A stretch of 17,198 nucleotides of DNA from Candidatus Hodarchaeota archaeon (GTDB lineage: Archaea > Asgardarchaeota > Heimdallarchaeia > Hodarchaeales > Hodarchaeaceae). The notes beneath the pieces were generated by a model. The model was not told where the DNA came from. It ran no database searches and saw only the letters and a list, made by a program, of their open reading frames with translations. This document shows, one piece after another, positions 1,685 to 17,198 of the stretch. The stretch is from assembly GCA_016839785.1 (NCBI GenBank), contig JAEOTQ010000142.1, positions 1-17,198 of the forward strand, given 5' to 3'. The position numbers and the translations under genes were made by a program. Each line of letters starts with the position of its first letter. Position 1 is the first letter of the stretch.

Positions 1685-3346
1685 CTACATCATTGGGGGC
1701 ATTCCGCCCATGCCACCCATTCCGCCCATACCACCCATTCCGCCCATACCTGGGGGCATACCGCCTGGGGCACCACCACCACCCGATTTACTCTGAATGA
1801 CATCATCAATACGAAGAATCAATTCAGCAGCTTCACGAGCAGATCTAAGTGCTTGGCGTTTCACACGGAGAGGTTCAATAATGCCAGCTTTGAAGGCATC
1901 AACATTTTTACCAGTTTCTACATTGACACCAATGTTAGTATTGCCTTGTTCGTGTGCGGCTCGTAACTCAACCAATACATCAATTGAATCAAGACCAGCA
2001 TTTTCAGCTAAGGTTCGGGGAATGATTTCCACCGCATCTGCAAATGCATCAACAGCCATTTGCTCACGACCTTTTACTGTTCCAGCAAATTCTTTGAGAC
2101 CTCTGTGGAGTTCAATTTCAGGACTTCCTGCACCAGCTACAGCCCAACCATCTTCCAGAACATCTCTTACGACGCATAAAGCATCGTGTAAAGCACGTTC
2201 AGCTTCATCAGTGACATATTTAGTGCCACCACGAAGAACGATTGAAACAGACTTGGGATTAGGACAATCTCTCACGTAGATGAGTTTTTCGTCTCCAATT
2301 TGAACTTCTTCAATGAGTCCTGCCGAACCTAAATCGTCAGCAGATAGATCTTTAAGATTAGTGACTACTTTAGCACCTGTGGCACGAGCAAGTTTCTCCA
2401 TATCGGATTTCTTGACTCGACGAACCGCAAGAATACCTTGCTTGGCAAGGAAATGTTGAGCTAAATCATCGATACCTTTCTGGCACAAAACAGTAGTAGC
2501 ACCAGAGGCCTGAATTTTATCAACCATATCTTGAATCATGGATTGTTCCTGATCAAGGAATGCATCCATCATAGAAGCTTCAGTAATGCGGATTTTCGCA
2601 TCAAATTCTGTCTTCTTGATTTCTAATGCAACATCGATTAGTGCAATGGAAGGCTTTTCAACAGAAGAAGGCATTCGAGTATTTACGACTTCTTTGTCAA
2701 TCACAATTCCTTGAATGAGTTCAGAATCAGTCAGACTCTTGCCTTGCTTTTGGATAATCGAGATCATATCTATATCCACTTTCTTATCCTCCATAACTGC
2801 TCTGGTAGCGGTAACAGCCATATCTGAGAGTAGAGTTTTTGCACCCCCAACTGATTTGGAATTCAGAGAGGTTCTAGCAATGGCAGTCAGACTCTCAGTA
2901 TCATCAGCTTCCACTTTATTGGCAATAGCTTGTAAGATCTCGGCAGCTTTATCAGAGGCGAGTTTGAAACCGCCAATGATAACGGTAGGATGAATCTTCT
3001 GATCAAGCAATTTTTCAGCTCGTTTGAGTAATTCACCAGCGATGATTACCGAAGTAGTCGTTCCATCGCCTACCTCTTGATCCTGTACTTTTGCTACTTG
3101 TACCAGCATTTTGGCTGCAGGATGTTGAACATCAATCTCGTCTAGAATCGTAGCTCCATCGTTTGTAATTACGACATCGCCTAATGAATCCACGAGTAAC
3201 TTATCCATACCTCGTGGGCCTAATGCACTACGTACTGCATCAGCCACGGCTATGGCGGCCTGAATATTATTTCGTTGAGCATCACGGCCGCGTGAACGCT
3301 CACTTCCTTCTTTAAGGATTATAACTGGTTGTCCACCTAGTTGCAT
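1685..3346 (-). CDS. thsA: Thermosome (group II chaperonin) subunit with GGM-repeat tail, 553 aa
   Basis: Motifs [51 protein letters not shown] at 3355-3359. The alpha/beta naming is arbitrary. Confidence 0.97.
1700..1750 (-). repeat. 9-nt coding tandem repeat encoding GM(GGM)5
   Basis: The + strand shows repeated catNccNcc units; the protein tail is [23 protein letters not shown]. Confidence 0.9.
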
Positions 3347-7764: not shown

Positions 7765-8436
7765 TCAATCCATATTTTGTCTAGTTTAAAGTACAGCTGG
7801 TCATTCAAAGATATAACTATTGATTTTTATTTGATATTTCTTAACTATTACGAATGAAAAATGGAGGGATGAATTTCAGCTACTATTGATGCTTAAATCT
7901 AATTACTTTTTCTAGAACAATCTGTTATTCATCTACAAATCGTAAAAAAATACGAAAAGGGCCTAATTTTCTTTCTCTTTCTTCTTTTTCTAGCTTATCA
8001 GAAGAAGATATATCTTCAATTGTGTTTATCACTTCTTTATTGATCATCTGGCTTTAGAATCGGATAATGATAGTAATTTCATTAAGCAAATCGTAGAATA
8101 TATCAGTGATCAGGTAAATGCACGAAATCAATGAGTAAAATACCTTATTGAGACATTTTAGAGGAAAAAGAGTTCTTTGGAAGAGAACTTCTTAACTCGG
8201 TCATAAATACATTATGATGAGCTTGAACTGAAAGCATACTTGAAGTCATTATCATCTCAAACTTGGATAGAGAAATTTGAAATTTTATTGTGATAGAATC
8301 TAGAGTGGGAATTGAATCCTGTGGTATCTGAGCAATGAAAGAGAAAGATATTTAATAGTAAGTTTTTGGTGGCTTAAATATTCTAGATTAGTGTAATTTA
8401 GAATATGAAATTTTATTGAGAAAAGGTGAAATAAAA

Positions 8437-8640
8437 ATGGCAGGATTTGCAAGTGCAAGAATCGAAAAATTAATTCGTAATGCCGGTGCTCGTCGCGTTT
8501 CCGCAGGAGCTATCAGCAGACTGAACGAGGTCCTCACTGATTATAGTATGGATCTAGCAAAATACGCAGTTGAAGTTGCTCGACACTCTGGTCGAAAAAC
8601 TGTTAAAGAAAACGATGTTAAATTAGCAGCAGCTAAATAA
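8437..8640 (+). CDS. Archaeal histone (HMf/HPh family), 67 aa, no tail
   Basis: Histone-fold motifs LIRNAGARRVS and ARHSGRKTVKENDVKLA. SD GGTGA (8425-8429) 7 nt before ATG 8437 favours this start over TTG 8416. TATA candidates TTTAATA at 8351-8357 and TTAAATA at 8374-8380. Confidence 0.95.
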   Translation: MAGFASARIEKLIRNAGARRVSAGAISRLNEVLTDYSMDLAKYAVEVARHSGRKTVKENDVKLAAAK

Positions 8641-8680
8641 GCTGCTAATACTAACTGTTTTCCTTTTTTTTCTTATTTTA
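8622..8680 (+). terminator. Hairpin plus U-tract terminator of the histone gene
   Basis: ATTAGCAGC (8622-30) pairs with GCTGCTAAT (8641-49) around the TAA stop, followed by TTTTCCTTTTTTTTCTTATTTT. Confidence 0.65.
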
Positions 8681-8724
8681 TCTGTCTGGGGAGCCTAGGA
8701 TGATTGAAAACTAGCAAATACTTC

Positions 8725-8919
8725 TTACTCTATACTAGAATATGTTTGCTGCAGCTCTTCTACGATTGCAATAGTCTCTTGATCAAGATTTTTCCCTGTT
8801 ATAAATGCGAATCCTCTATCATCAGGGTGAAATGTAACTTTTCCTACCGCCAATTCAATAACCTGTTTTGCATCTCGCGTCTCGATCTCTGCCTCTAAAG
8901 CAGAAGAGAGAGCTTGCAT
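8725..8919 (-). CDS. Small acidic hypothetical protein (64 aa from ATG 8919; 81 aa if initiated at ATA 8970)
   Basis: Protein-like alpha/beta composition; directly downstream of and co-oriented with the PLD gene. GGAG lies 8 nt before ATG 8919. The frame stays open upstream to the stop at 8992-8994, with GGAGG 8 nt before ATA 8970. Confidence 0.65.
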   Translation of the reverse strand: MQALSSALEAEIETRDAKQVIELAVGKVTFHPDDRGFAFITGKNLDQETIAIVEELQQTYSSIE

Positions 8920-8966
8920 GAAAAGTTCTCCTTTTTCCCAAGATGATAGTTTAAATTTAATTTTCG

Positions 8967-10439
8967 TTATTTCCTTTGCCTCCGAATTAATTTAATTGAG
9001 AAAACAAATAGCATCAGAGAGAACCATGAGAAAGGAGTATCCTCAGTCGTTGTTGTATCGGGAATTGTTGTTGTAGTACTGTGAGACGAAGTTTCTGTTT
9101 GAGTAACATAAGGGGGATTTTCTCCATCTATCCAATCTGCGTTAAATATCGATAGATAGTAAACCGCAACATTTGTATTTTGTATTACCATTCCTGCTTC
9201 ACGATTATTTGTAAAAGCATTTTCACCAAAATTTATCGATGATAGGAGCGTAACTTCGCCATCGACGATGAGGAGTTTATTATGCGTATCAGATAAATAA
9301 TCGCCAGTACTACTAGCTGAATTTCCCATCCATTTTACTTCAATACCTTTGTTAGCAAAATACTCAGTAACTTCATCGGAATCGCTGTCTTCGTTCACTT
9401 GCACACGCACCTTAACACCACGATTATGGGCATCAACGAGAGCTCTCACAAGTGGAGAAGGATCGTCATCCCAGGCAACATTATCATCAAATTGTGTAAT
9501 ATATTGGTTTTGAATTTCTATGGTGGATGTTGCGCTATCAATCCATGCCTTATGGATATCTAATGCATTATCAGGCGTAAACATTGGACTCAGAGTCATA
9601 GATTCCTTTAAATTTAGTGAGTTAAATGTAGGATGGTATAGTCCTGTAGTACTTATCTTGGGTGTAATATCCGAAGAGTTGTGTGCTTTGAATGATGACT
9701 CAATACTAGTTGGAGTCCAAACATCTGCGACTGCAACGTCTTTCTCCCAAACCTCATTTTTGAAGAACATGGCAATATCTGGCGCATCATGAACTACAAT
9801 CCCCATGTCTCGATTTCCTTTTGAGGAGGCATAAGAATCATCCTCATACGTTGTAACACTTCTTGGACTCCAATTTCCAGAGTAAACGAAGACATGTTTG
9901 TCATCAATTATCCAGTATTTTGCATGATAAAACCCATCGACTTTGTCATCGTCTTTTGTTGAATTAAAAACTGGTATGCCATTATCAACAAGGGATTGGG
10001 CAGCAGCTGCCGTGTCTTCATTCTCAGAACTGCCAACTCTTCTATATGAGATTAAAACGCTAATGTTTATCGATGGATTATTATTTTTTAAGTCAATTAA
10101 TGTCGCATTAAAATCAGGCCTACTAATAGTATACATAGAAACGAATATGGAGGATTCTGCGGTCGAAAGATAACGAAATATTACCTCTTCTGCATTATCA
10201 GGGTTCGCAAACAATGTTACATTGTATGTACCTGTAAAATTTGTTTTGGGGATGTCCGTATGACTTGGGTAGAGTGAATAAATCCGAGGTTGAAGTTTGG
10301 AAGCCTCTTGAGAAGAAAATTCATCTGAAAAAATAAAATTATTTCCATTTATGAACTCTTTTCCTTCAATCATAAGAATTAGGAAAGAAAAGGTTATTGT
10401 AAAAGCAATAAGTAAAGCGAATTGTCTAAATTTTGACAT
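8967..10439 (-). CDS. Secreted, C-terminally anchored phospholipase D/nuclease superfamily protein with two HKD domains, 490 aa
   Basis: HAKYWIID..SGNW and HNKLLIVD..SSINF motifs; internal duplication around PDNA; N-terminal signal/TM; Thr-rich linker, then TPF, TM helix and RRQRK. SD GAGG upstream of the ATG. Confidence 0.9.
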   Translation of the reverse strand: MSKFRQFALLIAFTITFSFLILMIEGKEFINGNNFIFSDEFSSQEASKLQPRIYSLYPSHTDIPKTNFTGTYNVTLFANPDNAEEVIFRYLSTAESSIFVSMYTISRPDFNATLIDLKNNNPSINISVLISYRRVGSSENEDTAAAAQSLVDNGIPVFNSTKDDDKVDGFYHAKYWIIDDKHVFVYSGNWSPRSVTTYEDDSYASSKGNRDMGIVVHDAPDIAMFFKNEVWEKDVAVADVWTPTSIESSFKAHNSSDITPKISTTGLYHPTFNSLNLKESMTLSPMFTPDNALDIHKAWIDSATSTIEIQNQYITQFDDNVAWDDDPSPLVRALVDAHNRGVKVRVQVNEDSDSDEVTEYFANKGIEVKWMGNSASSTGDYLSDTHNKLLIVDGEVTLLSSINFGENAFTNNREAGMVIQNTNVAVYYLSIFNADWIDGENPPYVTQTETSSHSTTTTIPDTTTTEDTPFSWFSLMLFVFSIKLIRRQRK

Positions 10440-10714
10440 TATTAATCCTCATATCAGTTAAGCATTAAATACAAATGAAATTCTTGTTCAGTAATGTTTC
10501 AGTTAACGTATTTTTAACTTTATATCTCCTATCCTTTAAGAGAACATGAACTCAATTTTTAAAAAACATTCTGAACAATCACTCAATGAGTATCCTCGTA
10601 AACATGAATGATGAATATTATCGGCATATAAGTAATTTTCTTTGATTTTTCGTTAACTCCTCTGTCCAAAATGTTTAATTCTTTTAATCTTCAAACACCT
10701 AAATATAGTTAGAA

Positions 10715-10722
10715 TTTATATG
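10715..10722 (+). promoter_or_regulatory. TATA box for the amidohydrolase gene
   Basis: TTTATATG about 40 nt upstream of ATG 10761; SD GGAG at 10749-10752. Confidence 0.5.
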
Positions 10723-10760
10723 TGAATAAATCTGAATGAATTTTTTGTGGAGATATAACG

Positions 10761-12113
10761 ATGGAAAGTTTATTACTAAAAAATGGTTTAGTTGTAACCA
10801 TGAATGCAGATAATGAGATTAAATCACCTATGGATGTATTGGTCGAAGGAGGAAAAATTGTTAAAATTGATAAGGAAATCAAACAAGCCACTGATGAGAC
10901 ATTAAATTGTGAAAATCAAGTAATTTTTCCTGGATTCATTTGTGCCCATACTCATTTGTATTCAGCTCTTCTTCGTGGAGCCCCTATGGATATTTCACCC
11001 CCAACTGACTTTACTCAGAATTTACAACGAATCTGGTGGCCTATGGATGAAGCATTAACCTTGGAAGATGCGTATACCTCCACACTTTACGCTGTTTATG
11101 AATTGGCATTGAATGGAATTACTGCTTATCTAGATACATATTCTGGGCCAAACGCTATAGAAGGGTCACTTGATCGAATCAGTAAAGCTACTCAAGATGT
11201 TGGTACACGTGGAGCAATTTGCTTTGAGGCTACAGAGCGTCGTTCTGTTGAGGAAGGGAAAAGAGGATTGGAAGAGAATCGTAGATTTATCTCTCTGAAT
11301 AATCCTGAGAAATCATTAGTACACGGAATCTACTGTTTACATGCGTCTTTCACAGTCTCAGATGAACTGATTCATAAAACCGTTGAATACGCTGATAAAA
11401 CGAATTCATTCAAAACAATTCACACTTCTGAGGGACTAGTTGATCTGCAACATAATCTTGAACGATACGGGAAACGTACGGTTGAACGATTATACGATGA
11501 AGGATTTCTTGGACCAAGGACAGCACTAGCTCATGCAGTCCACATTAATCAACGTGAAATAGACCTAATTGCGGAAACAAATACAAATGTTGCCCATAAT
11601 CCAAAGAGTAATGAATTGAATGCCGTGGGTGTTGCACAATTGCCCGAGATGCTGGAAATGGGAATCAATATTGGTGTAGGGAATGATGGGTTCATCTACG
11701 ATGCGATAGAGAATATGCGGACTGCATACCTTATGCATAAATTGAATCATCTGAATCCCAGTCAGGTACCAACTCCTTTACAAGTTATTCAAATGATCAC
11801 GATTAATGCCGCCCAAGCGATTGGATTAAAGGATCAAATTGGCTCAATTGAAGTGGGTAAAAAAGGAGATTTTGTTATCTTAGATACCTCTGCTCTACCT
11901 ACCCCGATCCATGAAGGTAATGTCTATGGTCATATGGTCTACGGTTCATTCTCACGAAGAGACATCAAGCGAGTCATTGTAAATGGGAAAACGATTGTAA
12001 AAAATGGTATTCACACCTCTCTCGATGCCAGTGAAGTCAGTCAGCAATCGAAAGACTCTGCGATTAAATTATGGGATAGATTAGACTTAACACCACGAGT
12101 TGTTCCCCTTTAG
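10761..12113 (+). CDS. ssnA: Metal-dependent amidohydrolase, SsnA-like, 450 aa
   Basis: PGFICAHTHLYS (HxH), DF...WWPMDEAL, GSLDRI, CFEATER, EENRRFI, HASFTV, IHTSEG, AHAVH, HNPKSN and GNDG follow the SsnA subfamily pattern as I recall it. The superfamily is secure; orthology to ssnA is probable only. Confidence 0.85.
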   Translation: MESLLLKNGLVVTMNADNEIKSPMDVLVEGGKIVKIDKEIKQATDETLNCENQVIFPGFICAHTHLYSALLRGAPMDISPPTDFTQNLQRIWWPMDEALTLEDAYTSTLYAVYELALNGITAYLDTYSGPNAIEGSLDRISKATQDVGTRGAICFEATERRSVEEGKRGLEENRRFISLNNPEKSLVHGIYCLHASFTVSDELIHKTVEYADKTNSFKTIHTSEGLVDLQHNLERYGKRTVERLYDEGFLGPRTALAHAVHINQREIDLIAETNTNVAHNPKSNELNAVGVAQLPEMLEMGINIGVGNDGFIYDAIENMRTAYLMHKLNHLNPSQVPTPLQVIQMITINAAQAIGLKDQIGSIEVGKKGDFVILDTSALPTPIHEGNVYGHMVYGSFSRRDIKRVIVNGKTIVKNGIHTSLDASEVSQQSKDSAIKLWDRLDLTPRVVPL

Positions 12114-12173
12114 TCTAGGTAATTGCACACAGAGAGAAAATGATTATCACAGAAGGAACAAAAAGAGAAGAAA

Positions 12174-12674
12174 TTAGTTTTGAAGATTTTCCAATGCAGC
12201 AAAAATTTTCGCTTCATCGGGAGGGCCTTCATTTAATTCATGGGGGATATCAATATAGCGAATAATTCCTTCCTTATCAATAATAAAGATTGCTCTTTTC
12301 CCAAAACCTATTTTTGGAATGAAAGCATCATATTTTTTACTAACTTCACCTGTAGGCACCCAGTCAGCTAATAAGGGATATTTTAATCCTCCTAAAGAAT
12401 CAATCCATGCTATATGGACTGGTATAGAGGCTATTCCTATAGCTAAAACTTGAGTATTTAGTACTTCAAACTTATTGACCTGCTTACTATAAGAAGGAAG
12501 TTGATGTGAGCATACAGGAGTGAAATCTTGTGGGTAGAAGGCTAACATAACATTTTTTTTCCCACGATAATCTGATAGTCGAATTTTCTTTCCATCTTGA
12601 GCTGGGAGAGCAAAATCTGGGGCTTCATCACCCACTTTAAGTTTACTGTCACCTTGTATTATTTTTCTAGACAT
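12174..12674 (-). CDS. Peroxiredoxin (AhpC/TSA family, AhpE-like, single Cys), 166 aa
   Basis: VGDEAPDF, peroxidatic motif [10 protein letters not shown] (PxxxTxxC), [27 protein letters not shown] (12681-12685) favours ATG 12674 over the track start at 12704. Confidence 0.92.
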
Positions 12675-13036
12675 TTGTTTCCACCGTAATTGTTGAATTA
12701 ACAATAGTGAAATACCCTATTAAGCTTTACTCTACTAAATTTCAAATTATTTTAGCTCAAAAGTTGTTGAAGCAGATGTTAAACCAATTATAAGCCCAAA
12801 AAGAAGAATTAAAGTAAGAAATTGAATCATTCTCCTTTTCTGTATTAACAATTCACCTTAAAATGGAACAACAATTTCTAAAGGTTTTATCATGAGTGTA
12901 CTTGAAGCCCCCGTTCTTTTTGTGTGTATCTAGATATAATCCTCAGAGAAAGATGGAAAAGAATCGATCTTCTAGCATTGCATTAACTCAATAAGAAATT
13001 TGAAGCTAATCAATCGGTGGTGAGGTTACCCTAGAC

Positions 13037-13064
13037 TAGTTTTCCAAATCGAAAAGGAAAACTA
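13037..13064. promoter_or_regulatory. Perfect 9-bp inverted repeat upstream of carbamoyltransferase 1
   Basis: TAGTTTTCC-aaatcgaaaa-GGAAAACTA, ending 30 nt before ATG 13095. Confidence 0.4.
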
Positions 13065-13094
13065 ATACATTTTTAATTGTATCTAACATAAGGA

Positions 13095-14168
13095 ATGAGT
13101 AGTATGGTAGTCACAGAAGATTTAAAAGGGCGAGATTTTCTCACCATGACCGATTTTACACGCGAAGAAATTGAAACATTTTTGAGTGTAGGAATGGATC
13201 TGAAAAAGCGATTCACGATGCGTGAAGATCATCGACAGATCTTACCCGCGCAAACATTGTTCATGGTCTTTTATAATGATAGTTTACGGACAAGAAATTC
13301 TTTTGAAGCAGGAATGACTCAATTAGGAGGTCATGCCCACTTCCTAGAACCAGGTGCAATATATACACCAGCATTACCCGGAGACGAAATTGCGTACGAG
13401 ACCGAGAGGGTTTCTGATGTAGCGCGTGTTCTCTCCCGGATGGGTGATGCTATTGCAATTCGTATTTACGGAGGCAAATGTGGATGGATGTACGGAAAGG
13501 GTCAACAAATCCAAGAAAACTTTGCCTATTGGAGTAAAAAACCCATCATCAACATGGAATCAGATGTATATCACCCCTGTCAGGGAATGGCCGATGTAAT
13601 GACAATGTACGAAAAAAGTGGTCATAGTTTTAATAATTTGAAAGGAAAGAAATTCGTGATGAGCTGGGCTTATTCCGCAGGTCAAAAACCCATGGCTGTC
13701 CCCCAGACAGGAGTTCTTGCACCTTCCATGTTTGGAATGGATGTTACATTAGCATGTCCACCTGAATTTGATCTACATCCTGATATTATTAAGAAAGTGG
13801 AAGATTACACAGATATTCATGGAGGATCTTTTCAGATCGAACGTGATATGAAAACCGCTTTTGAGGGTGCTGATTTCGTATATCCCAAAAGTTGGGGTGT
13901 CCTAGAAGCACACGGTGTGGATGGTGTACGACCAGCAAAACCAGAGATTATGCCTGACATTATGAATAAATATAAGGACTGGAAAACAACCGTAGAATTA
14001 ATGGATGTGACCAAAAACGGTCGTGGCTACTATATGCATTGTCTACCTCAAGATCGAGGAATGGAAGTAGATGATGAAGTAGCAGATGGCCCCAGATCCA
14101 TCATTTTTGATCAGGCTGAAAATAGGCTGCATGCCCAGAAAGGGGTAATGGCCTGTATAATGCATTGA
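13095..14168 (+). CDS. Carbamoyltransferase of the knotted YgeW/N-acetylornithine-carbamoyltransferase type, 357 aa (start may be ATG 13104)
   Basis: Motifs SLRTRNSF, HPCQ, HCLP, QAENR. It lacks the ornithine-binding DxxxSMG and instead has YPKSWG and the loop KGKKFVMSWAYSAGQKPMAVPQ, which resembles YgeW. Confidence 0.9.
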   Translation: MSSMVVTEDLKGRDFLTMTDFTREEIETFLSVGMDLKKRFTMREDHRQILPAQTLFMVFYNDSLRTRNSFEAGMTQLGGHAHFLEPGAIYTPALPGDEIAYETERVSDVARVLSRMGDAIAIRIYGGKCGWMYGKGQQIQENFAYWSKKPIINMESDVYHPCQGMADVMTMYEKSGHSFNNLKGKKFVMSWAYSAGQKPMAVPQTGVLAPSMFGMDVTLACPPEFDLHPDIIKKVEDYTDIHGGSFQIERDMKTAFEGADFVYPKSWGVLEAHGVDGVRPAKPEIMPDIMNKYKDWKTTVELMDVTKNGRGYYMHCLPQDRGMEVDDEVADGPRSIIFDQAENRLHAQKGVMACIMH

Positions 14169-14197
14169 TTTTGGATAATGTTTCTTGTTTTTGAACT

Positions 14198-15439
14198 TTA
14201 TTCAGAAGGGGAAGGAGATTTCGTTATTTTTTCTTCTTTAAAAGCAACTAAGAGAATGAAAATCAATACTATTGTTACTACTGCAGCGACACCGAAATTA
14301 TATCGAATAGTTTGATTTAAGCCTGCAAATACTCCTCCAAGAATTGTGCCTATTCCAAATCCTAAGTTCTGACTACTACTAAAAATTCCCATGAAAGTTC
14401 CCCTTTTCTTTTCAGGTACACTATTTGTGATTAAAACAGGGCCTGTAACCATTAATCCAATATAAATCGGCAATGTATACGCTAGTGCAGGGAAAAAATA
14501 GTTATCAACTGAAATATACATTGTAATCCAGATTAGGAAGTATCCAACATAGCAGATGAGTAAAATAGGTTTATAGCCACGTTTTTCACCAATTATTCCC
14601 GCAATATGAGAGGCACCAGTCCCTAATAACGTTGCTATTCCAAATACCAAGCCTAATAAAGATGTTGGGGCACCAAGTTCTGATATGAAATATACTGAAA
14701 AAAACATTCCCCCAAAAGAGCCCTGTAAAGATTGAATTATACTTATTATAAATAGAATTAATAAAATTCTTGAGTTAAGCAGTATAGAAAAAATAGTTTG
14801 AGAATTATTCTCTTTAGGATTTGATTGATTCGGAAAAGACAGTACTTCTTTAGTTTTTAAGTTTCTAATGAAAAGAACAAGGAAGAATCCCATAATGCAG
14901 ATTATTAATCCAAGAAAATACAACAAATCCATACCAAATTCGTCAAGTAAATTGCCTCCGACATAAGATCCCAAAAAATAGCCGAAGGATGTTGAAGCAG
15001 CTAGGGCACCAAATAGATTCATCTTACTTTTTAATAAGCTTGTATATTTTAACACAGCAGGATTGAAACACGATAACAAGCTATAGAGTATAATGTAATC
15101 AATGAAGAATAGGAGTGGATCAGTTATAAATAACAATGTTACAAATAAAGTAATGAAAATAATGAATCCTGCGCTCATGACAATTTTTGACCCAATTTTG
15201 TCCACTACCCACCCAAAAACAAAAACCGAGACTACCATTGTTAGTAAAGGAATTCCATTAAGTAAGCCTGTTAAATAATAATCTCCTTGTGTGAGATCGA
15301 AAAAATAAGGACCAATAAAAGGTTGAATTAACCCCCACGGAATAGTAAAGACCATATTTATTACCAAGATCAAAACTATATTCCTGTCTAAAGAAGAGAG
15401 AAACCTGCTTTGAATTTTGGAATAAAGATTAATAGGCAT
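14198..15439 (-). CDS. MFS transporter, about 12 TM helices (track start 15472; ATG 15439 preferred)
   Basis: Motif A-like GWVVDKIGSK and its repeat GIIGEKRGYK; VPEKKRGTFMG; two hydrophobic halves joined by a hydrophilic central loop. Confidence 0.9.
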   Translation of the reverse strand: MPINLYSKIQSRFLSSLDRNIVLILVINMVFTIPWGLIQPFIGPYFFDLTQGDYYLTGLLNGIPLLTMVVSVFVFGWVVDKIGSKIVMSAGFIIFITLFVTLLFITDPLLFFIDYIILYSLLSCFNPAVLKYTSLLKSKMNLFGALAASTSFGYFLGSYVGGNLLDEFGMDLLYFLGLIICIMGFFLVLFIRNLKTKEVLSFPNQSNPKENNSQTIFSILLNSRILLILFIISIIQSLQGSFGGMFFSVYFISELGAPTSLLGLVFGIATLLGTGASHIAGIIGEKRGYKPILLICYVGYFLIWITMYISVDNYFFPALAYTLPIYIGLMVTGPVLITNSVPEKKRGTFMGIFSSSQNLGFGIGTILGGVFAGLNQTIRYNFGVAAVVTIVLIFILLVAFKEEKITKSPSPSE

Positions 15440-15600
15440 TTGAAATACCGCATTTGGAACCAGAAAAAGCATTGCTCTTAATAAATTGTCAATGCGGTAA
15501 TATTTTCCAATGCAAAAAATCCACTCTTAGTGAAACAAATTTTTGTATTATACATTCGAATCTTTAATCGAATATTATTTGACGAAAAACGGGTGATTTT

Positions 15601-16587
15601 ATGCTTAAACCACTAGTAGTAATCGCACTTGGCGGGAACGCCATGATCAAGGGGAAACAGAGAGGAACAGTTGAAGAACAGATAGAAAATATTACCGAAA
15701 CGGCAAATCAAATTATGAAAGTAATTCCGAAGTATCGGGTAGTAATTACTCATGGGAATGGTCCTCAAGTCGGAAACATTATGCTTCAGATGGAAGCAGG
15801 AAGTCATCCCCCTGTTAATCGACCTGTACTGCCCATGGATGTTTGTGGAGCAATGACTCAAGGACAAATTGGATATATGATTCAAAATATTCTAGGTAAC
15901 CTATTGTTGAAGGAAGGACCTCCTAGTAGGACAAATCCACAAGAAAAGATAAATGTGTCTACGATCGTTACACAAGTCGTTGTATCCAAAGATGATCCAG
16001 CCTTTCAGAATCCAACAAAGCCAGTTGGCCCCTTTTACTCTAAAGAGCAAGCTGATTCAATTAAATCAGATCATCCCGAGTTCACAATAATTGAAGATGC
16101 AGGTAGAGGATATCGGAGAGTTGTTCCATCACCTAATCCGATAGAAATATATGAAAAAGTTCAGGTTAATACATTACTTAAAGCAGGTTTTATCGTTATT
16201 GCAAGTGGTGGCGGAGGAATTCCTGTAATAAAAAATGAAGATGGTACTGTTCAGGGTGTTGAAGCAGTTATTGATAAAGATCTGGCTGGAGAAAGATTAG
16301 CCGTTGATGTTGATGCTGAAATTTTTGCTATACTTACGGATACGGATCGAGTTTATCTTAATTATAATTCCCCCAATGCAAAGGGAATCGATACTATAAC
16401 GCGTACGGAAGTTGAGAAGTATCTTGATGAAGGCACATTCGGAACAAGCCTGAAAGGAAGTATGGGTCCTAAGCTAGGAGCAGCATTGAGATTCTTAAAA
16501 GATGGAGGAAAAAAAGTTATTATAACTAGCCCAGAACTTGCTGCTGATGCATTGGAAGGTAAAGCAGGAACCACTATTACTCCATAA
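15601..16587 (+). CDS. arcC: Carbamate kinase, 328 aa
   Basis: Motifs IALGGNA, THGNGPQVG, AMTQGQIGY, DPAFQNPTKPVGPFY, GYRRVVPSP, GGGGIPV, EAVIDKD, GSMGPK. SD GGGTGA lies 4 nt before the ATG. Confidence 0.97.
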   Translation: MLKPLVVIALGGNAMIKGKQRGTVEEQIENITETANQIMKVIPKYRVVITHGNGPQVGNIMLQMEAGSHPPVNRPVLPMDVCGAMTQGQIGYMIQNILGNLLLKEGPPSRTNPQEKINVSTIVTQVVVSKDDPAFQNPTKPVGPFYSKEQADSIKSDHPEFTIIEDAGRGYRRVVPSPNPIEIYEKVQVNTLLKAGFIVIASGGGGIPVIKNEDGTVQGVEAVIDKDLAGERLAVDVDAEIFAILTDTDRVYLNYNSPNAKGIDTITRTEVEKYLDEGTFGTSLKGSMGPKLGAALRFLKDGGKKVIITSPELAADALEGKAGTTITP

Positions 16588-16599
16588 GAAATTTAGAAG

Positions 16600-17198
16600 G
16601 TGAAAAAGATAGAACAATCAGATTTGTATGGTAAGCACTTAATTTGTACCCAAGATTGGACAAAACACGAACTTGATCTCGTCCTAGATCTTGCAGGAAG
16701 AATGAAACGGGAACGTTTCTCGTATTCAAGTGTGCTAGAAAACAAGACTTTTTTCATGTTTTTCTATAATCCGAGTGTAAGAACTCGTCAGAGTTTTGAA
16801 GTAGCGGCTACAGAGCTCGGTGGTCATGCTCAATTTTTAGAGCCAAAAGCTATGAGGTTGAAAACAGAAAAAACGGCTGGAGAAACAGTTGAAGATGCTG
16901 CTCAGGTAATGTCCAGATATGCCCATGGATTAGGAATCCGTATTTTGGAAGATAAGGTTGGAGCATATGGAGAAGGTGAAAAGTTACTTCGAGAGTACGC
17001 AAAATGGTCGGCTATTCCTATTATCTCGATGGCCCATGATAAATATCACCCATGCCAAGGATTAGCTGACGTCATGGGTTGGTCTGAATGGCTCCATCGT
17101 GGACCTCAATATCCTCCAGATTGGAAGACCCTAAAGGGAAAGAAGCTGTTGGTTACATGGGGTCATGGTGCACTCGCTCGTTCATGGTGTTCTGTACA
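16600..17198 (+). CDS. Second carbamoyltransferase (OTCase/ATCase superfamily), cut off at its 3' end by the window; not in the ORF track
   Basis: Manual translation in the arcC frame: ..EQSDLYGKHLICTQDWTKHELD..FFMFFYNPSVRTRQSFEVAATELGGHAQFLEP..GETVEDAAQVMSRY..PIISMAHDKYHPCQGLAD..LKGKKLLVTWGHGALARSWCSV, open to the window end. There is no ATG near the N-terminus; start candidates are GTG 16600, ATA 16609 and TTG 16624. Confidence 0.92.
   Translation, partial: MKKIEQSDLYGKHLICTQDWTKHELDLVLDLAGRMKRERFSYSSVLENKTFFMFFYNPSVRTRQSFEVAATELGGHAQFLEPKAMRLKTEKTAGETVEDAAQVMSRYAHGLGIRILEDKVGAYGEGEKLLREYAKWSAIPIISMAHDKYHPCQGLADVMGWSEWLHRGPQYPPDWKTLKGKKLLVTWGHGALARSWCSV

Follow-up and report, generated by a model that had tools for sequence, protein, structure and literature searches.

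A predicted purine-type catabolic module built on two uncharacterised carbamoyltransferase subfamilies in a Hodarchaeales archaeon

The question raised by this locus is what two carbamoyltransferases (CT1 and CT2) and a carbamate kinase are doing beside an SsnA-like amidohydrolase in an archaeon, on a stretch of DNA that carries no arginine deiminase gene. The stretch, referred to here as the window, is 17,198 nucleotides long and corresponds to the entire contig C103 (JAEOTQ010000142.1) of the Candidatus Hodarchaeota metagenome-assembled genome (MAG) G000 (GCA_016839785.1; 4.04 Mb in 248 contigs, completeness 84.5%, contamination 3.4%). An earlier interpretation made from the letters alone (the sequence-only reading) had proposed that these four genes and a major facilitator superfamily (MFS) transporter gene, all within 6.5 kb, belong to an anaerobic purine/ureide energy pathway of a probable Asgard archaeon. 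All five genes were found at the positions it had given, with a peroxiredoxin gene between them that it had not listed; the absence of an arginine deiminase from the window was confirmed, and an Asgard host agrees with the occurrence of CT1 at 85–98% identity in MAG records of Hodarchaeota/Heimdallarchaeota. We propose a catabolic module for purine-type N-heterocycles, akin to the reductive urate (2,8-dioxopurine) pathway as a variant of it, whose genes are dispersed and whose energy-conserving end is encoded in the window, and give this a probability of roughly 0.6. That CT1, CT2 and the kinase form a catabolic ureido-phosphorolysis module tied to an SsnA/hydantoinase/xanthine dehydrogenase (XDH) route is held with much the same confidence. 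In short, we describe a variant of a known pathway, first seen here in archaea, that is built on two uncharacterised transcarbamylase subfamilies.

The known pathway provides the frame for this proposal. In E. coli and clostridia, the reductive urate cluster encodes XdhD-YgfM, YgfK or UacX, SsnA, HyuA, YgeW or UacY, YqeA, YgeY and YgeX (Li et al. 2025, PMC12507026; Liu et al. 2025, bioRxiv 10.1101/2025.04.24.650524). YgeW phosphorolyses one ureido group of 2,3-diureidopropionate, with formation of ATP via the carbamate kinase YqeA, and YgeY hydrolyses the other; both papers agree on this point with the account that the sequence-only reading had given. SsnA is regarded as a marker of the pathway, and in Chloroflexota clusters an F420 'luciferase family' reductase replaces YgfK or UacX (Li et al. 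2025, PMC12507026).

The distribution of the CT genes was surveyed in 186 relatives, with one genome per species, and the best 80 loci were analysed. Sixteen of these came from close Asgard relatives, 63 were labelled bacterial and one was from Thermoplasmata; the last two groups are referred to as the 64 distant loci, 30 of which had at least 5 kb on both sides (well-flanked loci). The bacterial loci belonged mostly to Bipolaricaulota/Acetothermia and to MAGs labelled Thermotogae, with further examples from Caldisericota, Chloroflexota, Atribacteria and Fraserbacteria. A CT2-type gene was present near the CT1-type gene in 62/64 distant and 30/30 well-flanked loci, and a carbamate kinase gene in 58/64 and 30/30. 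Genes for a GntR regulator (43/64; 27/30), a CysK-like 490-residue pyridoxal phosphate (PLP) protein (33/64; 26/30) and the Mo subunit of XDH (35/64; 22/30) were also frequent neighbours, and neither argB, argC, argG or argH nor an orthologue of YgeW or YgeX was found near any of the CT1-type genes (0/64 and 0/30 in both cases). The common order in the distant loci was kinase, CT1, CT2, with most intergenic gaps below 120 bp. Chance does not explain the clustering seen in the window, because dozens of unrelated genomes show this arrangement of CT1, CT2 and kinase again.

Within the Asgard archaea, the kinase gene lay directly upstream of CT2 in 8/8 loci of close relatives that hold both genes. 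A CT1-type match was obtained in 70/280 Asgard genomes from outside the genus (E ≤ 1e-100, 52–60% identity), and in another Asgard family (L098, L101) the gene order was ThrC-like, CT2, CT1 (facing it), amidohydrolase and SsnA-like gene. The view of the sequence-only reading that the two-transcarbamylase design is an Asgard variant did not hold, since other Asgard families have the pair and so do 62 of the 64 distant loci, 63 of those 64 being bacterial. The pair was thus not invented by Asgard archaea, and its distant carriers are mostly Bipolaricaulota and other uncultured bacteria.

Two bacterial loci place the CT pair in the same cluster as bona fide markers of the reductive urate pathway, with membership of the SsnA family being judged by curated cut-offs (IPR017700/TIGR03314 and NF005540). 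In L072 (Fraserbacteria), the order is YgfK, SsnA, ThrC-like, M20 peptidase, CysK-like, CT1-type and CT2-type, and both markers pass their cut-offs (YgfK with 1049 bits against 835, SsnA with 515 against 444). In L059 (Acetothermia), a luciferase-like (LLM) reductase gene is followed by SsnA (527.6 bits), ThrC-like, CysK-like, kinase, CT1-type and CT2-type genes. The succession of SsnA and ThrC-like genes in both loci is also that of the Asgard relatives, where a ThrC-like PLP gene directly follows the SsnA-like gene in 5/8 loci holding the latter.

The remaining pathway genes were sought in G000 by tblastn with the E. coli cluster proteins and then by family scans. An XDH Mo subunit 38% identical to E. 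coli XdhD (501 bits) is encoded at the end of contig C73, with the Fe-S and FAD subunits and MocA continuing across the join between C73 and C102. A D-hydantoinase on C134, approximately 13 kb beyond CT2 along a chain of contigs, is 38% identical to HyuA and passes TIGR02033 (417.1 against 393.25); its counterparts in relatives, 67–70% identical to the G000 copy, are encoded 3.5–4 kb after CT2. On C182, an LLM-class F420-type oxidoreductase and ThrC-like and CysK-like PLP enzymes are encoded side by side. All three are 60–62% identical to products of cluster genes in L059, L020 and L072: the reductase is 62% identical to the SsnA-adjacent LLM protein of L059, the ThrC-like enzyme 62% identical to the product of the gene following the SsnA-like gene in five relatives, and the CysK-like enzyme 60% identical to that of L072. 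The F420 ligase CofE is also encoded in G000.

G000 and the reductive urate pathway are alike in their overall logic, which in G000 is a predicted one, of a Mo hydroxylase, a reductase, SsnA- and hydantoinase-type ring openers, transcarbamylase phosphorolysis and kinase-derived ATP, with G000 holding homologues of XdhD, HyuA, YqeA (43% identity) and SsnA (30%, below the family cut-off). They differ in that G000 has two transcarbamylases of other subfamilies for YgeW and ThrC-/CysK-like enzymes for YgeX, its YgeY homologue is unlinked, its genes are scattered over contigs and the host is an archaeon; orthologues of YgfK, UacX, YgeW and YgeX were not found in G000. A YgeY-family hydrolase is encoded on C18 (449.5 bits against 321), back to back with a class-III aminotransferase (L009 1512-4150) and not adjacent to the module. 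When five genomes of the genus were compared with this gene pair at the DNA level, only G238 gave a match (72%); the four closest relatives gave none, nor was the YgeY family found in them at E ≤ 1e-80. We take the pair for an accessory island, though it could have strayed in during binning.

A profile of 20 other genomes of the genus, 14 CT1-positive and 6 CT1-negative, showed the same set of genes travelling with CT1. CT2 was present in 14/14 CT1-positive and 1/6 CT1-negative genomes, the SsnA-like gene in 14/14 and 1/6 (partial), the hydantoinase in 14/14 and 2/6, the kinase at 73% identity or above in 14/14 and 2/6 (two more carried a 62% form), the LLM reductase in 13/14 and 0/6, the XDH Mo subunit in 13/14 and 1/6, and the CysK-like gene in 12/14 and 4/6. 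CT2, kinase, SsnA-like, hydantoinase, LLM and XDH genes occurred all together in 13/14 CT1-positive genomes, the lone CT1-positive genome without LLM and XDH being a 1.4-Mb single contig that is 71% complete. The YgeY family showed no such co-variation (8/14 and 5/6) and is not tied to the module; an adjacent ygeY, which the sequence-only reading had regarded as a threat to a yield of two ATP, was not encountered in G000. Because the genomes are kin, the profile overstates their independence, and the co-occurrence pattern is suggestive without amounting to a statistical test. Of the genes that the sequence-only reading had proposed to look for in the genome, XdhD- and HyuA-like ones were found and co-vary with CT1 and CT2, as does the SsnA-like gene, and YgeX and YgfK orthologues were not found.

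Three side observations concern these accessory genes. The C182 group (L096, 9216-13854) comprises the LLM oxidoreductase, a VIT-family protein and the ThrC-like and CysK-like enzymes, beside an 818-residue APC amino-acid transporter. The match to the LLM open reading frame (ORF) holds one TGA in three close relatives and one TAG in a fourth, less close one, and these stops probably fall in an over-long N-terminal extension of the ORF call. A second amidohydrolase of the TRZ/ATZ type is encoded beside the hydantoinase in G000 (L006 on C134, 1-792) and in L022 (20214-21071), and between CT1 and the SsnA-like gene in L098 and L101 of the other Asgard family; its role may be purine deamination or an additional hydrolysis of a ring or ureide.

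From these parts the following route can be proposed. The molybdenum XDH (C73/C102) and the F420-type luciferase-like reductase (C182) would prepare and dearomatise the ring. The SsnA-like amidohydrolase of the window and the D-hydantoinase (C134) would then open the two rings and give a compound with two ureido groups. CT1 and CT2 would work in reverse, by phosphorolysis, with each freeing one carbamoyl group as carbamoyl phosphate, and the kinase encoded upstream of CT2 would convert carbamoyl phosphate and ADP into ATP, CO2 and NH3. Finally, the ThrC-like and/or CysK-like PLP enzymes (C182) would finish the C3 skeleton in the place of YgeX. The use of two enzymes would be natural because 2,3-diureidopropionate has two chemically distinct ureido positions, and a replaced hydrolase would fit because M20/YgeY genes are rare and unlinked. 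We infer the substrate, the direction of catalysis and the allotment of one ureido group to each CT, with two ATP formed. Replacement of the hydrolase by a second CT, with a doubled ATP yield, as in the sequence-only reading, is plausible and consistent with the data; the chance that both carbamoyl groups are in fact captured appears to us somewhat short of even.

The direction of catalysis was judged from the supply and sinks of carbamoyl phosphate. G000 encodes three transcarbamylases in all, namely CT1, CT2 and a true ornithine transcarbamylase (OTCase) on C180 (L011, 5771-6739). Neither an aspartate transcarbamylase (ATCase) nor pyrB, pyrI, pyrD, pyrF or pyrE was found in the assembly with the proteins of a close relative as queries, nor were carA, carB, argB, argC or argG. 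Carbamoyl phosphate in G000 would thus go only to the kinase or to the lone OTCase, which favours a catabolic, ATP-forming role, and the absence of ATCase, carbamoyl-phosphate synthetase (CPSase) and arginine-synthesis genes from the assembly makes this role the best reading. The organism may rely on pyrimidine salvage, subject to the completeness of its assembly of only 84.5%.

An anabolic role was considered against this background, in which the kinase would make carbamoyl phosphate, as proposed for Pyrococcus, and CT1 and CT2 would carbamoylate acylornithine-like acceptors or otherwise supply arginine or pyrimidine biosynthesis. No CPSase large subunit scored above cut-off in any of the 21 genus genomes (0/21, controls 14/14; one genome, G217, has a 610-bit fragment), yet 16/21 encode an ATCase, so that their carbamoyl phosphate would have to come from the kinase or from phosphorolysis by the CTs. 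Moreover, a full pyr operon (pyrB, pyrI, pyrD, pyrK, pyrC, pyrF, pyrE) lies between CT1 and the MFS, kinase and CT2 genes in L015 and L016, and the bacterial CT1-type protein of L049 passes the model for N-acetylornithine carbamoyltransferase (AOTCase; 321.6 against 288). In genomes of the L015/L016 type, pyrimidine synthesis may draw on the module or its kinase as well; in G000, the slot between CT1 and the MFS gene spans 29 bp (14169-14197). G000, however, has retained CT1, CT2 and the kinase with neither ATCase and the other pyr genes nor argB, argC and argG. The AOTCase signature is largely lost from both CTs, as is the RRN motif of an arginine-cluster homologue (see below), and no argB, argC, argG or argH gene was found near the pair in the 16 close Asgard loci, as in the well-flanked bacterial ones. 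An anabolic function as the main role is thus considered very unlikely.

A further explanation would have the kinase serve mainly a scattered arginine/citrulline route, with CT1 and CT2 as unrelated neighbours. The kinase is the sole gene of its kind in G000, the C180 enzyme passes the OTCase equivalog model TIGR00658 (412.6 against 280.85) and has the DxxxSMG and HCLP motifs, and C45 encodes a 307-residue arginine-deiminase-like protein (L104, 3465-4388) beside a proline-dehydrogenase-like gene. This protein is some 100 residues short and falls far under the arcA cut-off of 489.1, with 93.8 bits for the matched stretch and 151.6 for the whole protein; nothing in the genome scored above that cut-off. 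The three genes are on three contigs among unrelated neighbours, the OTCase gene standing alone beside Urm1/ThiS-like and CofE genes, and neither it nor the deiminase-like gene clusters with the kinase, whose gene adjoins CT2 at a distance of 12 bp and is linked with the CT pair in several phyla. This possibility is regarded as close to negligible. The module does resemble the arginine deiminase pathway (ArcA, catabolic OTCase, ArcC) in forming ATP at substrate level via carbamoyl phosphate and carbamate kinase, but differs from it in that CT1 and CT2 lack DxxxSMG, no arcA scores above cut-off and the true OTCase is encoded elsewhere.

The family to which each CT belongs was addressed with curated models, solved relatives, motifs and trees. 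As CT2 is split between two contigs, its full-length orthologue L013:13497-14549, to which the two pieces are 97% and 92% identical, was used as a stand-in for all CT2 scores. Neither protein passed any curated carbamoyltransferase model: CT1 and CT2 reached 275.7 and 235.5 bits with the AOTCase model NF003384 (cut-off 288), and 218.4 and 187.2 with the OTCase model TIGR00658. With the YgeW models, CT1 scored 170.5 (NF005538, cut-off 453) and 159.4 (TIGR03316, cut-off 500), the CT2 halves scored 44.1 and 71.7 with the former, and these models were absent from the matches of the CT2 stand-in at E ≤ 1e-40. Among solved relatives, Xanthomonas AOTCase scored highest (197 bits with CT1, 194 with CT2), followed by Pyrococcus OTCase (162 and 176) and YgeW (151 and 88); the succinylornithine transcarbamylase (SOTCase) in the PDB gave 90 and 81.

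Both proteins retain the carbamoyl-phosphate-binding motifs SxRTR (SLRTR in CT1, SVRTR in CT2), HPCQ and ENR and the Arg of the 'IRI' stretch. CT1 also has HCLP and a conserved, long 80s loop, and its 'proline-rich' loop holds two prolines. Both CTs have an extended 120s loop, which E. coli ArgI and the C180 OTCase lack; together with a proline-rich loop, it is a criterion (Shi et al. 2015) of the knotted transcarbamylase group, the fold of which contains a trefoil knot. According to the same source, AOTCases are marked by Glu92, Asn185 and Lys302 (Xanthomonas numbering), SOTCases have A/S/P/V/Q, P and V/I/E at these positions, and the genes of both sit in arginine-biosynthesis clusters; YgeW-type enzymes (YTCases) have a longer chain, extra terminal helices, an extended 240s loop and a short Trp-less 80s loop, and their gene is close to that of a carbamate kinase. 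At the three signature positions, CT1 has E/P/E, with one of the three AOTCase residues kept, and CT2 has gap/S/E, with none; CT1 fits SOTCase at two of the three (P, E) but has Glu at 92, and CT2 has Ser at 185. These residues were read off HMMER alignments to PDB 3KZC/3M5C with a 20-residue tag offset, inferred from the length of 359 residues against a native length that we take to be 339. At the position of the OTCase 240s-loop motif DxxxSMG, CT1 has KSWGVL and CT2 RHWMSP, and both have DRGxE where the AOTCase type has RRNxK/E.

CT1 is the best G000 match of E. coli YgeW (33% identity), and shares with YgeW (PDB 3Q98) a kinase gene nearby, the extended 120s loop, the WAYSxxxKPxxVPQ loop, the (Y)PKSW stretch and HCLP, which extends to HCLPAD in bacterial homologues as well. 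Unlike YgeW with its 396 residues, CT1 has 357 and CT2 approximately 350; the long 240s-loop insert and the post-HCLP insert of YgeW are missing from both, the 80s loop of CT1 is 9 residues longer than the short one of YgeW, and both CTs have ENR where YgeW has SWK. With AOTCase (Xanthomonas, PDB 3KZC) and SOTCase (Bacteroides, PDB 2FG6) the two CTs share the extended 120s loop, but lie outside arginine clusters, have lost the triad and carry DRGxE.

Two quick IQ-TREE maximum likelihood (ML) runs with SH-aLRT support only were made. The first drew on 80 of 157 CTase sequences, taking in the Asgard loci completely, one in every three of the distant loci and 8 loci picked individually, and the second on 51 sequences; two incomplete ones below 300 residues had been dropped before alignment. 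In place of characterised AOTCase, SOTCase, putrescine transcarbamylase and ureidoglycine transcarbamylase (UGTCase) sequences, the PDB scores, the curated models and L102 served for comparison. CT1-type and CT2-type sequences formed separate clades (support 94–97 and 98), with YgeW, E. coli ArgI and the OTCase of G000 outside both and the placement of YgeW and of a third transcarbamylase from L064 unsure on account of their long branches. L102, a homologue from another Asgard family (43% identical) that sits among argG, argH, argB and argE and has the RRN motif missing from CT1 and CT2, was sister to the CT2 clade. Judged by sequence, CT1 and CT2 belong to two distinct sister subfamilies of extended-120s-loop, putatively knotted-type transcarbamylases, and neither is filed under a named family. 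YgeW orthology was ruled out by model scores, length, loops and trees, AOTCase identity by the sub-cut-off scores, the lost triad and the lack of an arginine cluster, and OTCase identity by the missing DxxxSMG, the TIGR00658 score and the tree position. The label 'YgeW-like' that the sequence-only reading had given to CT1 thus stands loosely, for the identity and the shared loop motifs, and fails as a statement of orthology, AOTCase being closer; the outcome that it had named as a refutation, both enzymes clustering with true catabolic OTCases next to arcA, was not observed. Among the homologues, one distant protein fuses an amino-acid-kinase domain to a transcarbamylase.

A number of observations weigh against the proposed module, and they are gathered here with the two explanations to which they lend themselves. 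The module genes of G000 are scattered over at least five contigs of an incomplete MAG. No YgeX was found above cut-off by tblastn or family model and no full YgfK by tblastn, the searches with YgeX, YgfK and YgeW giving only weak or partial matches, and the LLM, ThrC-like and CysK-like proteins are assigned as stand-ins by position, synteny and co-occurrence only. The kinship of the genus genomes, mentioned above, belongs here as well. The window SsnA-like protein falls below both SsnA cut-offs (375.3 against 444 for NF005540, and 345 against 455.5) and shares only 35–36% identity with the bona fide SsnA proteins encoded in L072 and L059. NF005540 is nonetheless its best family by more than 120 bits, the next family giving 251.6, and it is the best G000 match of E. 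coli SsnA, to which it is 29.6% identical; it is a candidate ring-opening enzyme. Linkage of the CT pair to SsnA (6/64 distant, 4/30 well-flanked loci) and to hydantoinase (18/64; 13/30) is low in bacteria, and because of this the conserved core is restricted to kinase, CT1, CT2, XDH and the CysK-like protein, the substrate of which could differ from urate.

The module could accordingly act on another ureide, such as N-carbamoyl-beta-amino acids formed in reductive pyrimidine degradation, products of 5-substituted hydantoins, or allantoate/oxalurate derived from allantoin, with the same hydantoinase-CT-kinase logic and no 2,8-dioxopurine route. Besides the weak ties to SsnA, this would suit a hydantoinase that passes a dihydropyrimidinase/D-hydantoinase model, and the genes found upstream of CT1 in L016 (hydantoinase-like, aldehyde dehydrogenase, class-III aminotransferase and C-N hydrolase) would fit the handling of beta-alanine. 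Allantoate is also a di-ureido compound, and the UGTCase of Rubrobacter xylanophilus (Rxyl_2847), a catabolic enzyme encoded adjacent to a carbamate kinase, phosphorolyses it (Barba et al. 2013, PMC4016543). The CTs would resemble this UGTCase in acting catabolically on a di-ureido purine product, and have a kinase gene nearby as it does, but UGTCase belongs to the unknotted ATCase branch, serves an oxidative uricase/allantoinase route and is a single transcarbamylase; two adjacent transcarbamylase genes upstream of xdhABC have been noted in Nocardioides in the same article. Against another ureide stand the XDH Mo subunit, which follows the pair in 22 of the 30 well-flanked loci and tracks CT1 in the genus, and the bona fide SsnA that shares a cluster with YgfK or LLM in L072 and L059. 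Furthermore, no DHO_dh-type (PydA/UacX) gene was found in G000 with the pyrD of a relative as query, the allantoinase models stayed below cut-off (289.2 against 631 and 266.6 against 357.85), and no uricase-type gene was seen in the annotated clusters. We consider a different ureide quite improbable, and a purine-type substrate remains our preferred assignment.

The other group of observations concerns CT2 and the second ureido group. At the site of the HxLP motif, CT2 reads HPMP and 29 bacterial CT2-type proteins read QCMP, and the 'proline-rich' loop of CT2 holds no prolines; the activity of CT2 is therefore not assured from its sequence. M20 genes occur near the CT1-type gene in 9/64 distant and 5/30 well-flanked loci and adjoin the CT pair in L044, L049, L054, L072 and L087, and L064 encodes a true YgeY. 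The hydrolase is thus not always dispensable and the design is not uniform. The roles given here to the two CT subfamilies are predicted ones.

These points would be accounted for if CT1 and CT2 were subunits of one heteromeric transcarbamylase that cleaves one ureido group and yields one ATP, the other group being removed hydrolytically by another amidohydrolase, such as the second TRZ/ATZ-type protein encoded beside the hydantoinase or CT1 in Asgard loci, or by an M20 enzyme. The pairing of the two genes is near obligate in the distant loci as in the genus, many start-stop gaps measure between -3 and about 30 bp, a spacing often seen for subunit genes, the CT1 and CT2 clades are parallel in topology, and transcarbamylase trimers have their active sites at the interfaces of adjacent subunits (Shi et al. 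2015). Both proteins, however, have the full set of carbamoyl-phosphate-binding motifs, and in close Asgard relatives the two genes are 2–10 kb apart, with CT2 beside the kinase and CT1 alone. The solved family members that they match are deposited as single-protein enzymes, and no CT1-CT2 fusion was found among 5 longer homologues, which is weak evidence. A heteromer appears unlikely, if less so than the other explanations, and two enzymes acting each on its own ureido group is the arrangement that we favour.

The L064 locus (9986-16627) is of interest in its own right: it encodes a kinase, a CT1-type protein, the true YgeY (538.6 bits), a third transcarbamylase of 328 residues, a CT2-type protein and XDH. 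The third transcarbamylase passes no model and joins the long branch of YgeW in the trees, which may be an artefact.

The genes of the window were inventoried from an ORF listing and from Pfam and NCBIfam family scans (Table 1); Rfam and tRNA scans of the window gave no matches. The kinase scores above the cut-off of the TIGR00746 equivalog model, shares 43% identity with E. coli YqeA and is encoded 1.4 kb downstream of CT1 and 12 bp upstream of CT2, the reading of which is cut by the contig end at base 17198. Contigs C31, C103, C64 (reversed) and C134 (reversed) are chained by identical 127-base ends, the final 127 bases of the window being identical to one end of C64, where the remaining 192 codons of CT2 were found in frame, for a complete protein of approximately 350 residues. 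In relatives as in G000, CT2 is followed by a small gene, a 274-residue gene on the other strand, DUF123 and a transglutaminase. The join of C103 and C64 was accepted because this gene order agrees with the relatives and CT2 reads on in frame.

Table 1. Genes of the SsnA-like/CT region of the window and the continuation of CT2 on contig C64.
Feature	Position	Strand	Family match
SsnA-like amidohydrolase, 450 aa	10761-12113	+	Amidohydro_1 188 bits; SsnA NF005540 375.3
Peroxiredoxin, 176 aa	12174-12704	-	AhpC-TSA 127.9 bits
CT1, carbamoyltransferase, 357 aa	13095-14168	+	OTCace_N + OTCace domains
MFS transporter, 424 aa	14198-15472	-	MFS_1 119.6 bits
Carbamate kinase, 328 aa	15601-16587	+	TIGR00746 (arcC) 381.2 bits, cut-off 358.25
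CT2, first 199 codons of second carbamoyltransferase	16600-17198 (contig end)	+	OTCace_N 127.9 bits
CT2, C-terminal 192 aa	L003:7538-8116 (contig C64)	-	OTCace 107 bits

The MFS transporter matched no specific NCBIfam family; of the relatives, only the nearest ones, L012, L013 and L016, keep its gene between CT1 and the kinase (L014 has a partial copy), and the protein is a possible carrier of substrate or product. A peroxiredoxin gene follows the SsnA-like gene also in L013, L015 and L025, with other relatives having the ThrC-like gene there, and it is a neighbour outside the pathway assignment. RNA-library contigs (two libraries of one study) match parts of the SsnA-like and CT1 genes at 95–99% identity, which is at most a weak hint of expression, and their lack of coverage of the kinase and CT2 is uninformative.

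Elsewhere in the window, there are two tandem thermosome subunit genes (44-1672 and 1685-3346, minus strand), both of which pass the thermosome models of the alpha, beta and archaeal types. At 8967-10439 (minus strand), a PLD-like protein is encoded that has two domains and gives weak DrmC/NucT-like matches, and its gene is kept directly upstream of the SsnA-like gene in L013, L015, L019-L021, L023 and L025. Between it and a 680-residue metallophosphoesterase gene lies a 1.2-kb segment (7765-8966) with no ORF of 80 residues or more, Rfam family or tRNA.

The anaerobic urate pathway was worked out as late as 2025 and for gut bacteria only. Our literature search gave nothing that ties Asgard archaea or Bipolaricaulota to it or that describes a twin-transcarbamylase form. 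The main texts of PMC12507026 and 10.1101/2025.04.24.650524 mention neither archaea nor a second transcarbamylase, and the supplements may show two OTCace genes in Chloroflexota clusters. In Li et al. 2025 (PMC12507026), 'YgeW' and 'YgeX' were counted by Pfam domain only, so that those counts would not separate the CT1/CT2 form from that of E. coli. For the cultured Hodarchaeales strain HC1, the Xdh has been read as making antioxidant urate, and the term 'carbamoyl' occurs 0 times in the available part of that preprint (bioRxiv 10.1101/2025.02.26.640444). Public annotation conceals these genes, as the sequence-only reading had anticipated, under the names ornithine or N-acetylornithine carbamoyltransferase.

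In its fullest form, the proposal is that two new transcarbamylase subfamilies working in series take both carbamoyl groups and yield two ATP per purine instead of one, that the same design serves Hodarchaeales and at least two further families of Asgard archaea, together with several uncultured bacterial phyla, that the module is the sole source of carbamoyl phosphate in a CPSase-less genus, and that the Hodarchaeales Xdh is the entry to an energy-yielding purine fermentation. This combination is put forward tentatively, as one that is more probably wrong in some part than right throughout. If it is true, two new transcarbamylase specificities would be defined and a systematic mislabel exposed, since the bacterial CT1-type protein of L049 passes the AOTCase model of NCBI and N-acetylornithine carbamoyltransferase is the name that many proteins of this kind bear. 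It would also bear on the source of carbamoyl phosphate in a genus without CPSase, and the Xdh of strain HC1 would have a different role from, or one additional to, the formation of antioxidant urate. Purines from necromass would then be a fermentable, ATP-yielding substrate for the closest archaeal relatives of eukaryotes and for abundant sediment bacteria.

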